A stretch of 64,000 nt of DNA from a virus. Taxonomy: Duplodnaviria; Caudoviricetes. Positions 1 to 2,012 of this stretch are shown here, piece by piece. Numbering within the stretch: the stretch's first letter is position 1; each line of letters starts with the position of its first letter. Location: positions 192,001-256,000 of IMG/VR virus record IMGVR_UViG_3300037851_000141; one strand, given 5' to 3'. The notes under the pieces were generated by a model, which saw only the letters and a program-made list of their open reading frames with translations, was not told the DNA's origin and made no database searches. The position numbers and the translations under genes are program-made.

Positions 1-456
1 GCGAACGAACATAAAATCAACTATACAAGAATGGGTGAACCGTTTCTTAATATTGAAGCTGTTCGTAAAGCGATTGAGATAATTGATCAACGATATCCAA
101 ATACTCACCATTATGTCAGCACTATCGGAATTGCTGGTGCTGATTATTCGTGGATCAAAGATAACATCACTTTACAACTGAGTTTACATAGCCTTGATGA
201 CGCTCGTAGAAATGACCTAATTCCATATAAGAACAAAGTTAGTGTTGAAGAGTTAGGCAAGATCAGAACCAAGAGTCATTTGAAGACTACAATCAATCTG
301 ACTCTCGTTGATGAAGCAGATTTTGATATTGATATTATTAAGAAATATTTTGATCCAGAGTATTTCTTTATCAAGTTATCGCCTATTAACAAAAACGACA
401 TTTCAATTGCTAATGGGCTTGGTGACGGTATAATCAAAGCAACAAACCTGAAGTAA
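1..456 (+). CDS. RlmN/Cfr-like radical SAM RNA methyltransferase, 5'-truncated by window edge; lacks the C-terminal AACGQL segment
   Basis: Frame open from base 1. INYTRMGEPFLN matches the RlmN MGEP motif; YVSTIG and LQLSLHSLDDARRNDLIP match RlmN core motifs. Confidence 0.8.
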   Translation, partial: ANEHKINYTRMGEPFLNIEAVRKAIEIIDQRYPNTHHYVSTIGIAGADYSWIKDNITLQLSLHSLDDARRNDLIPYKNKVSVEELGKIRTKSHLKTTINLTLVDEADFDIDIIKKYFDPEYFFIKLSPINKNDISIANGLGDGIIKATNLK

Positions 457-466
457 GGAGCCTACC

Positions 467-604
467 ATGGACACTCAAACCATCCAAGAACAACTCACTC
501 AAGCCGGCTATGATAATGCGATTGCCTGTGCTACTGAAGCTGAAATCAATGCTAAAGCGGCTTGCGGGCAATTGGCTATCATTACCGAGGCTGATGCGCA
601 ATAA
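467..604 (+). CDS. 45-aa peptide carrying the RlmN-type C-terminal AACGQL motif (not in ORF track)
   Basis: AGGAG RBS at 456-460, ATG 467, TAA 602-604. MDTQTIQEQLTQAGYDNAIACATEAEINAKAACGQLAIITEADAQ. Confidence 0.8.
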   Translation: MDTQTIQEQLTQAGYDNAIACATEAEINAKAACGQLAIITEADAQ

Positions 605-608
605 AATA

Positions 609-616
609 TATAAATA
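609..616 (+). promoter_or_regulatory. T4-like late promoter TATAAATA (representative; recurs at 1985, 3566, 5909, 25424, 54830, 56852 on + and 8540, 15736, 30767, 35954, 38919, 40744, 48475 on -)
   Basis: Exact octamer repeatedly found shortly upstream of start codons; identical to the T4 gp55 late consensus. Confidence 0.7.
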
Positions 617-638
617 GTGGGTATAAGGTAAAACAATT

Positions 639-1979
639 ATGCCCACTTTTTCGATAAAACACATTCTGGATGAAGCATTTGGTCGTACTGTTGATGACTT
701 AAATGCTAAACTTGTTCAATTAGCTAAAACCTGGGGTGGTAAAGTATATATTGTTGGTGGTGCCGTTCGTGATGAATTGATGGGCATTAAACCTAAAGAT
801 ATTGATTACCTTGTCACTAAAATTGAATCATCTGATCTTGCTAAAAAACTACAAAATATTCTTCCTGGTGCCAAGGTAAATGAAGTAGGTAAATCTTTTG
901 GTATCATAAAACTTGTTGTTGGTGATGATGAATATGATTTTGCTATTCCAAGAGCCGATGTTGATAGAGATAATGTAAAAACTGATCCAAATATCCCGGT
1001 TGAACAAGATTTATTGAGAAGAGACATAACAATAAATTCTATGGCTAAGGATGTTGAAACTGGAGAAATAATATCTGCTTTTGGTGAAGATGGCGTTGCT
1101 GATGTTAAGAATAAGATAATAAAAGCAACAGGCGACCCAAAACAGAGATTTAAGGAAGATCCGTTAAGGATGTTAAGGTGTATACAATTTTCTGCTCGTT
1201 TTGGATTTGATATTGAACCAAACACATTTAAAGCAATTCAAGAACTTAAAGATGATTTCAATCAATTATCAGTAGAACGATTTAGAGACGAATTCTATAA
1301 AGGTTGGACTAAAGGTAATAAAGACACCACGAAATTCTTACAACTATTAGTGGATACTGGTGTAGGTAATCTCTTATTTGGTTCAGATTTTAAGCCTATT
1401 GCCATTGATATAAAGAATAAAGATCCAGAGTCAGCATTCAATGCGCAATATATAGCAATGTTCCTTAATGGCGGCGACCCAACCAGATTAAGCAACTTTA
1501 ACTATGATCATGATTTGATTTTTGTTGCTCGACTCTTAAAATCTTTTATTGATAATGGTATTGATTGGAATGAATTGAAAAAGTTATATAAACATGGAGA
1601 TTTATTCCCAATTATTGCTGAAGCTTTTTATCTTATTGATCCTAAATTGGGTGATAAACTAAAGAGTATGTTATCAAAACCTCTTATACAACGGTTAAAT
1701 AAATCTCGTTGGAATATATGGGAGTTGCCGATTCAAGGTGGAGAAATACTTGAAATAATGGGTGGTAAAATACAAAATAAATCAATACCAGTTGTTATAC
1801 AGAAACTCATAAAAGCCTATCAAAATGGAGAAATAGCAATAAATCCAGATAATGAAGATGAATCTAAAGAACTTGCTAAAAAATATATATCAACTGTACT
1901 GGTAAACGATAAAGATATAAAAGAATCAGATCGTCTTGGTATATTTGAATCAAGAATCTTCAACATTTTCAACCGATAA
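639..1979 (+). CDS. cca: CCA-adding tRNA nucleotidyltransferase (class II)
   Basis: VYIVGGAVRD..KDIDY (DxD), DLLRRDITINSMA, RFKEDPLRMLRCIQFSARFGF. Confidence 0.9.
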   Translation: MPTFSIKHILDEAFGRTVDDLNAKLVQLAKTWGGKVYIVGGAVRDELMGIKPKDIDYLVTKIESSDLAKKLQNILPGAKVNEVGKSFGIIKLVVGDDEYDFAIPRADVDRDNVKTDPNIPVEQDLLRRDITINSMAKDVETGEIISAFGEDGVADVKNKIIKATGDPKQRFKEDPLRMLRCIQFSARFGFDIEPNTFKAIQELKDDFNQLSVERFRDEFYKGWTKGNKDTTKFLQLLVDTGVGNLLFGSDFKPIAIDIKNKDPESAFNAQYIAMFLNGGDPTRLSNFNYDHDLIFVARLLKSFIDNGIDWNELKKLYKHGDLFPIIAEAFYLIDPKLGDKLKSMLSKPLIQRLNKSRWNIWELPIQGGEILEIMGGKIQNKSIPVVIQKLIKAYQNGEIAINPDNEDESKELAKKYISTVLVNDKDIKESDRLGIFESRIFNIFNR

Positions 1980-2012
1980 AAGAATATAAATACAATACGA
2001 GGAACTTATATT

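Follow-up and report, generated by a model that had tools for sequence, protein, structure and literature searches.

The textbook examples of class A radical S-adenosylmethionine (SAM) methylases are RlmN and Cfr, the latter being in addition a clinically important resistance enzyme. The locus considered here raises the question whether an enzyme of this type can be made of two polypeptides, the methyl-carrier cysteine residing on the smaller. The locus lies at the start of a stretch of 64,000 nucleotides (nt), here called the window, which covers positions 192,001 to 256,000 of the IMG/VR virus record IMGVR_UViG_3300037851_000141 (Caudoviricetes) and belongs to a single 331,849-bp contig (34.9% G+C) of a freshwater phage. 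The gene of an RlmN-like radical SAM core (P0001) ends there ahead of the point where RlmN has its cysteine loop, and a gene for a peptide of 45 amino acids (aa), P0002, follows, with the sequence of such a loop. The explanation that best covers the evidence as a whole is that the two products make up one enzyme; with its proposed chemistry and target included, we give it a probability of about 0.6. The argument turns on the following features.

Window 1..456, + strand: RlmN-like radical SAM core gene, 3' part (residues 113-263), as read from the open reading frame (ORF)
454..456, + strand: TAA stop of the core, placed where canonical RlmN runs on into its last helix, strand beta7 and Cys355 loop
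455..460, + strand: Shine-Dalgarno-like AAGGAG, overlapping the core stop and 6 nt ahead of the peptide ATG
467..604, + strand: 45-aa peptide gene with ATG start, encoding a helix, a strand (AGYDNAIACAT) and a cysteine loop (KAACGQL)
563..565, + strand: TGC codon of Cys33, counterpart of the methyl carrier Cys355 of RlmN and Cys338 of Cfr
609..616, + strand: TATAAATA motif, directly after the peptide stop and before the next gene

The core gene begins 336 nt upstream of the window, at position 191,665 of the genome (L001:5665-6456), and specifies a product of 263 aa. In frame 1 no stop occurs between the first base of the window and the TAA at 454-456, and the product ends in ...GDGIIKATNLK. 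The peptide ORF is shifted +1 relative to the core and reads ...IQEQLTQAGYDNAIACATEAEINAKAACGQLAIITEADAQ. The gap between the two genes is 10 nt, with no mobile endonuclease gene at the break. A frameshift joining the two ORFs would have to fall within 2 nt, as frame 2 meets a stop at 449-451 and frame 1 at 454-456. The original prediction, made from the letters of the window, had described a radical SAM ORF that stops at 456 without its terminal motif, and a +1-frame ORF at 467-604 with a ribosome-binding site of its own and the AACGQL motif; both descriptions are borne out by the frame-1 reading to the TAA and by the AAGGAG at 455-460 ahead of the ATG at 467.

What kind of protein is the core? 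The part of P0001 encoded upstream of the window carries the CxxxCxxC cluster motif in the form CLVRCKFC (residues 71-78), as well as Gly64, at the position of RlmN C118, and Asp31. The protein matches the Pfam family Radical_SAM (PF04055) at 8.4e-07 with 29.7 bits (cut-off 29.5). Its best family match is the RlmN model of NCBIfam (TIGR00048, 1.6e-21) at 76.7 bits, which is well under the 290-bit cut-off of that model. Cfr models give 53-56 bits (about 1e-14), their cut-offs of 468-550 bits not being reached, and models of radical SAM peptide maturases match weakly and in the cluster region alone (E 4e-4 to 0.09). The RlmN chains in PDB match residues 58-197 (E 4e-10 to 9e-09) and the Cfr chain is matched at 1.2e-06. 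P0001 also has an MGEP-type SAM motif, as does RlmN. A megablast search of window positions 1-2000 against phage records gave no match.

Core and peptide align colinearly with E. coli RlmN (reference sequence taken from NC_000913) across both ORFs. The last core strand, ...IKLSPINKN..., aligns to ...INLIPWNPF... of RlmN and the core then stops; P0001 is without the methyl-carrier cysteine loop, the chain terminating ahead of it. The peptide is colinear with RlmN residues of about 330-360, namely the last helix, strand beta7 and the AACGQL loop that contains Cys355.

The junction itself appears sound. The original prediction had pointed to positions 450-470 as the place where an indel error might hide. 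A public freshwater metagenome run contains the stretch in full; no RNA run is listed among the public runs. Public contigs show no indel, and the likely source run is identical to the window. Two other studies supply contigs that are not identical to the window at every base; these span 1-460 gap-free, retain the stop at 454-456, and then enter a variant peptide start, AATTTTATGAATCCC.... Of all these contigs, only those of the likely source run extend across 450-470 by 31 letters on each side, and what the others show is that the stop and both flanks are free of indels. In related strains (from groundwater and from another metagenome; runs X2 and X3), the core is common up to the stop and a different peptide 5' end, AATTTTATGAATCCCATTGAAAAAGAAGTA, comes after it (window 454-490). 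Such differing 5' ends suggest mosaic exchange at the junction.

The same split recurs in homologous phage loci, where the original prediction had asked for it to be sought. A tblastn search finds a full-length homologue of the core in eight cultured phages, and all eight have the peptide just downstream. These carriers span distant lineages: a crAss-like Kehishuvirus, a Moorella phage, Vibrio phage D479, and Ounavirinae-like phages of Pectobacterium and Yersinia. Core and peptide are annotated as separate genes in Kehishuvirus 'tikkala', Moorella phage MTATph1, Vibrio phage D479, Pectobacterium phage Wc4 and Yersinia phage P778. At E<=1e-5, 2013 homologues of the core are present in the protein database; each of the best 119 has a length of 257-282 aa, and none of these 119 contains an ACGQ motif. 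Peptide homologues, 40-62 aa in length, form 22 clusters.

Related viral contigs in IMG/VR give the same picture. The core stops at about 260 aa in 80/80 loci, and in 77 of them a profile of the peptide matches a downstream ORF on the same strand (of the three loci without a match, one is on a truncated contig). The peptide gene is within 30 nt of the core in 39 loci, where the smallest gap is 5 nt and all three relative frames are represented; the other 38 peptide genes are 0.3-2.9 kb away, with inserted genes. The order can also be reversed, as at L009:3007-4786, where a 39-aa peptide gene is followed by a NUMOD3-type endonuclease gene and then by the core gene. Two proteins, P0146 (315 aa; L093:44-991) and P0160 (695 aa), carry the peptide as an N-terminal fusion to the core, which amounts to a circular permutation relative to RlmN. 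We regard it as close to certain that the split is natural and ancient.

Some carriers vary the arrangement. Phages Wc4 and P778 have a conserved ORF, about 90 aa long and weakly matching phrog_5321, between core and peptide (L005:3385-3663 and L006:3369-3641). In Vibrio phage D479 (OZ195776.1), a single ORF at L004:3357-3581 contains two whole peptide modules in tandem (...KEVKEAGFDAGLAIATDAEVNAGAACGQMAIL, twice). P0160 has, in addition, a C-terminal second radical SAM domain, and the gene after P0146 encodes a radical SAM protein of 239 aa.

The peptide is conserved over its full length, with 14 invariant columns in an alignment of 22 sequences. Cys33 is the sole invariant cysteine, both in this alignment and in 56 unique gene variants. 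Among the 56 unique peptide genes, the ratio of nonsynonymous to synonymous polymorphism (pN/pS) is 0.22 with a pS of 0.80, synonymous sites being close to saturation; the peptide evolves under purifying selection. Its resemblance to the missing part of RlmN is not due to chance, because the peptide profile matches the ORF beside the core in 77/80 related viral contigs with E values of 1e-19 to 1e-26.

Do core and peptide act together? Prediction of a core-peptide complex gives an interaction prediction score from aligned errors (ipSAE) of 0.74 in three runs, against 0.41 for the best control, and the modelling of the pair that had been proposed at the outset thus passes its controls. The mark of 0.74 was calibrated: it is reached by 58/80 solved complexes and by 2/110 mismatched pairs. 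The runs share at least 74% of contacts, with a partner predicted local distance difference test score (pLDDT) of at least 61. Peptide residues 13-23 are predicted to contact core residues 234-240 (FFIKLSP, the last core strand) and the beta' strands (residues 11-16, 32 and 34), and the peptide helix to pack on the core helix 214-231. A preprint on the structure of Cfr gives the same arrangement of the C-terminal region (10.64898/2026.02.27.707579).

The natural fusion P0146, which is 43% identical to P0001, yields an AlphaFold model with a pLDDT of 87.7 and a predicted template modelling score (pTM) of 0.88. The helix and strand of its fused peptide have a pLDDT of about 90, and the cysteine loop 53-58; the low value in the loop fits the flexible loop known for RlmN (PMC9692996). 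The model superimposes on RlmN with Z of 20-21 and a root-mean-square deviation (rmsd) of 2.6-3.9 A over 226-236 residues, model residues 45-312 corresponding to RlmN 73-329; against Cfr the Z is 15.1, and against the next family, TYW1, 12.7. Judged on this relative, the RlmN-type fold, that is, a partial TIM barrel with a beta' sheet extension, is predicted to be present. Taken together with the conservation described above, we consider it probable that the peptide serves the core as its cysteine loop.

The mechanism that we propose has the 263-aa core supply the [4Fe-4S]/SAM site and an RlmN-type beta-sheet extension, the chain stopping before the last barrel strand. The 45-aa peptide would bind to it non-covalently and add the missing strand beside FFIKLSP (core 234-240). 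Homology and the model suggest that the flexible AACGQL loop would thereby be placed over the active site. By analogy with RlmN and Cfr, Cys33 would accept a methyl group from a first SAM, and the 5'-deoxyadenosyl radical from a second SAM would generate a Cys-S-CH2 radical, which would attack an adenine ring at an sp2 carbon. The peptide-substrate adduct would then have to be resolved by another base, because the family is without a cysteine at the C118 position; the candidate is an acidic residue at the position of E. coli Tyr108, which is Asp31 in P0001. That the chemistry would amount to methyl or methylene transfer to an adenine, as the RlmN/Cfr analogy has it, is in our view an evenly balanced proposition.

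The need for a substitute base follows from how far the family departs from RlmN and Cfr. What defines class A radical SAM methylases is a pair of conserved cysteines in one chain, of which C118 (C105 in Cfr) is described as indispensable for resolution of the crosslink (PMC9692996); C118A and C105A mutants of RlmN and Cfr yield stable protein-RNA crosslinks (PMC9692996; 10.64898/2026.02.27.707579). The C118 position is Gly64 in P0001 and Gly in 119/119 close homologues. The cores have no further conserved cysteine, and 8 of the 119 possess just the three cluster cysteines. A second departure concerns the N-terminal HhH2 domain that anchors RlmN and Cfr on RNA (10.64898/2026.02.27.707579). P0001 begins at the beta' extension and the domain is absent: the alignment is without RlmN residues of about 25-67, and the structural match starts from RlmN 73-78. 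Cys21 of the peptide (AIACAT) was considered as a substitute for the resolving cysteine and dropped, Ile or Val occupying the position in nearly all homologues.

A tree of 85 representatives splits at the presence or absence of C118, with 98% support in the Shimodaira-Hasegawa-like approximate likelihood ratio test (SH-aLRT). Every member of the C118 clade, which includes E. coli RlmN, has the Cys, and 28/33 have a fused CGQ tail. The C118-less clade consists of three groups, namely the split phage family, a loop-less sister group, and bacterial proteins with a fused ...NCGQ tail, which come from candidate division WOR-3, Elusimicrobiota and Moorella. The bacterial proteins (P0203, P0214, P0222, P0225, P0231, P0244, P0251 and relatives) have Ile, Met, Asn or Thr at the C118 position, and two of them are fused to an isochorismatase-like domain. 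The sister family (P0192, P0200, P0209, P0213, P0218 and P0220; L090-L092) shows the motif KIGVSL..SGC..GC.YCF, with Gly in the C118 column, and ends right after a ...GF.YA.R strand, before the cysteine loop; its contigs are just 1-2 kb long.

The same clade offers a possible replacement for the lost thiol. In an alignment of 83 proteins, 34/51 of the C118-less members have Asp or Glu in the column of E. coli Tyr108, compared with 2/32 of those with the Cys. Tyr108 is three residues past the conserved Glu105, on the strand neighboring that of C118. In a Vibrio/FelixO1-like sub-branch the Asp is changed to Ala, with a cysteine two residues on (ETTATCLP vs ExTDTFLP). We propose the acid of the Asp31 type, or the cysteine of ETTATCLP, as a candidate substitute base. 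The C118-less clade, fused bacterial forms included, suggests that the RlmN/Cfr fold has a second chemistry that is uncharacterised.

How does the module compare with known systems? With RlmN (the C2-methyltransferase of E. coli 23S rRNA A2503 and tRNA A37; 3RF9, 3RFA, 5HR7) it shares the CxxxCxxC and MGEP-type motifs, the beta' extension and AACGQL, whereas the phage form has the loop and strand on a separate 45-aa product, Gly in place of Cys118, no HhH2 domain, and a clade of its own. Cfr (the C8-methyltransferase of 23S rRNA A2503; 9P0P) has the same class A architecture, with the methyl-carrier cysteine motif near the C-terminus; however, the phage match to it is weaker than that to RlmN, Cfr has Cys105 and an N-terminal domain, and there is no sign of C8 specificity or of an rRNA target in the phage. 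The nearest parallel in active-site composition is found in the RlmN C118A and Cfr C105A mutants, where the methyl-carrier cysteine is present without the resolving one, which is the natural state of the phage family. While the mutants are engineered dead ends, the phage family is conserved in thousands of phages, and presumably completes a useful reaction, possibly by means of the acid at the Tyr108 position. The bacterial one-cysteine proteins belong to the same C118-less clade and mostly have both the acid in the Tyr108 column and a CGQ motif, but they differ in that their cysteine loop is fused C-terminally, as in RlmN.

Genes in pieces are known in phages, examples being the split NrdA of Aeromonas phage Aeh1, the T4 topoisomerase gp39/gp60, and the split DNA polymerase gp43 of phage 25 (PMC2988022). 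As in those cases, two conserved adjacent ORFs are colinear with a single-chain homologue, and in some relatives an endonuclease gene or other genes are at the break (L009). The known splits each occur in a single phage or a small group, and their halves are large, unlike the RlmN-like split, which occurs in very diverse lineages and in which one piece of about 40-45 aa bears the catalytic residue. In none of the compared systems does a free peptide of some 45 aa carry a catalytic residue while the resolving cysteine is lost, and literature searches directed at an RlmN that is split or of phage origin turned up no paper describing one. The original prediction of a two-component RlmN/Cfr thus holds in one part and not in another: the natural two-gene split stands, with a peptide homologous to the C-terminal cysteine loop (as judged from the conserved split, selection, the N-terminal fusions and the predicted docking), but the enzyme is not a standard RlmN or Cfr, given Gly64 for C118, the missing HhH2 domain, and a score of 76.7 bits against the 290-bit cut-off.

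The family breaks both of the rules that define class A: one cysteine has moved to a free peptide of 40-45 residues and the other has been lost. It is also large, with more than 2000 proteins in the database, from phages of crAss-like, T4-like, FelixO1-like and jumbo type. It offers a system in which to study how a methyl-carrier loop is delivered to an active site, and permits asking whether a carboxylate can stand in for the resolving thiol and whether the crosslinked intermediate is itself a natural product. It points to modification of nucleic acids or nucleotides by phages that are highly abundant in gut and freshwater.

What might the target be? The neighborhood of the module includes the following genes.

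L001:1807-4695, 4.2-1.3 kb upstream of the window: phosphoribosyltransferase-like gene, YggL (50S-binding)-like gene and 581-aa Ro60/TROVE-vWA gene
Within window 609-1979, after TATAAATA: gene for a 446-aa protein of the CCA-adding enzyme / poly(A) polymerase family (PF01743, PF12627)

The three upstream genes and a 215-aa ORF precede the module, and the gene of the CCA-adding enzyme directly follows it. The three form an RNA-surveillance neighborhood for the module. The end of the two-gene unit is marked by the TATAAATA motif, of which there are 5 copies in 10 kb compared with 1.3 expected; a search for a terminator-like site at this end found none. Four of five cultured carriers encode 22-27 tRNA genes, with the tRNA cluster within 4-6 kb of the module in three of them, and in two metagenomic loci (L015 and L052) the module is inside a tRNA array. 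From this context, tRNA is a tentative first guess at the target, with an A37-like adenine as the site, and a guess more apt to fail than to hold. Of the substrates named in the original prediction, phage tRNA A37 and host 23S rRNA, it is genomic context that speaks, weakly, for tRNA.

Several observations weigh against the two-polypeptide methylase, and they bear on each of its parts. The peptide alone has no match in Pfam, NCBIfam or PHROGs, and the profile of 22 peptide sequences finds just one irrelevant weak match among PDB chains. The putative homology of the peptide to the RlmN tail is based on where the peptide lies, on its colinear alignment and on the identity of AACGQL, and not on score. 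The score of the predicted complex may reflect memory of the solved single chain of RlmN, in which case it speaks for likeness and does not prove binding. Because the second cysteine and the RNA-binding domain are both absent, turnover and RNA recognition cannot be assumed, and the proposal of Asp31 as substitute base has one alignment column as its basis. As to the target, the Moorella phage has one tRNA, and a tRNA is found within 3 kb in just 7/44 metagenomic loci. Finally, a second and unrelated radical SAM gene (NrdG/MoaA-like, 255-297 aa) is found within about 3 kb of the core in 38/80 viral loci, many of the 38 being near-identical crAss-like contigs; such inserted genes hint at a pathway beyond simple methylation in some phages.

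These points leave room for other explanations, the best surviving of which keeps the two-piece chemistry and changes its target to something other than RNA, either an adenine-containing small molecule (a nucleotide, a compound related to nicotinamide adenine dinucleotide (NAD), or a signalling nucleotide) or DNA. It is favored by the absence of the HhH2 domain, by which RlmN and Cfr are anchored on RNA, and by genes for NAD salvage, NUDIX proteins or nucleoside deoxyribosyltransferase that adjoin the module in some relatives. However, RNA enzymes are the neighbors of the module in this genome, the carriers are mostly tRNA-rich phages, and we know of no member of the RlmN/Cfr fold group that has a small-molecule substrate. 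We consider a non-RNA target improbable.

Another explanation takes the loss of C118 at face value: the reaction would halt at the stage of C118A RlmN, with Cys33-S-CH2 tied to C2 or C8 of adenine, and the adduct, an RNA or nucleotide tagged with the peptide, would be the product. By analogy with the stable crosslinks given by the C118A and C105A mutants (PMC9692996; 10.64898/2026.02.27.707579), the peptide would then be a covalent tag welded onto RNA, for example onto an adenine of a tRNA anticodon loop or of the 23S peptidyl-transferase center. Gly is at the C118 position throughout the family, 8/119 cores are without any cysteine beyond the cluster ligands, and a cysteine on a small, separately translated peptide would be a cheap single-use reagent; the two tandem modules in one ORF of Vibrio phage D479 can be read in the same way. 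If true, such a tag could disable host RNA, or shield phage tRNA from the anticodon nucleases of the host. Yet the C118-less bacterial relatives keep the loop fused, and P0146 and P0160 fuse it N-terminally, so that in these cases the whole enzyme would be single-use; moreover, the acidic residue specific to the clade is available as a substitute base. That the peptide is consumed in this manner is an outside chance, both for the halted reaction and for the tag that it would leave on RNA.

A further alternative makes the peptide the substrate or scaffold. The core, with the second radical SAM enzyme where there is one, would modify its cysteine region to give something like a ribosomally synthesized and post-translationally modified peptide (RiPP), or a small molecule borne on the peptide. 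The peptide does have a small gene to itself; some half of the viral loci insert a gene for a second radical SAM protein, a methyltransferase-like protein or a protein with a Cys-rich tail; P0160 joins peptide, core and a second radical SAM domain; and the module is duplicated in tandem in phage D479. On the other hand, the peptide is colinear with a segment integral to RlmN and is predicted to complete the barrel, and its conservation is uniform (14 invariant columns in 22 sequences), without the leader/core pattern that would mark a RiPP precursor. Neither a protease nor an exporter is seen nearby, and the second radical SAM gene is missing beside the module in this genome and in the five cultured phages examined. 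A search of this genome for an orthologue of that gene found none near the module, with generic radical SAM matches only, at 154.5 and 276.9 kb; because this genome does without one near the module, the minimal unit consists of the core and peptide genes. A role as substrate seems to us a slim prospect.

The weakest alternative, that the arrangement is an artefact of an indel error, a pseudogene of recent origin, or a programmed frameshift giving one fused protein, has in its favor that the ORFs are 10 nt apart and one frame off, such that a single-base indel at 451-456 would fuse them, but it is rejected with practical certainty, given a core stop common to the contigs of other studies and to 80/80 related loci, purifying selection on both parts, a peptide with its own Shine-Dalgarno site and ATG, separate peptide genes in relatives, and relative frames of 0, 1 and 2, gaps of up to 2.9 kb and a reversible order, which no single frameshift rule therefore fits.

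The inserts of the relatives are varied in content. The second radical SAM gene is mostly between core and peptide, at times together with a methyltransferase-like gene or with a gene for a protein with a Cys-rich tail. Examples are L010:3901-5118, L011:4023-5553, L025:3796-5515 and L041:3780-4968, and there are about 34 more IMG/VR loci of this kind. The Cys-rich tail ends in ...GSCG...GRC, and an insert type of 1172 nt carries a SAM-methyltransferase-like gene of 147 aa. The proteins with a Cys-rich tail and the other inserted ORFs gave no informative family match.

Two unusual members of the family may be added. P0256 (78 aa) is a metagenomic chimera in which the first 65 or so residues of the core are joined straight to ...KAACGQLAIITEDK, and is probably a deletion variant. 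P0144 (601 aa), a core of the split family, is interrupted precisely at the third cysteine of CxxxCxxC by an intein-like insert of about 340 aa (...CPVRCAF / C...VHN / CATAKL...).

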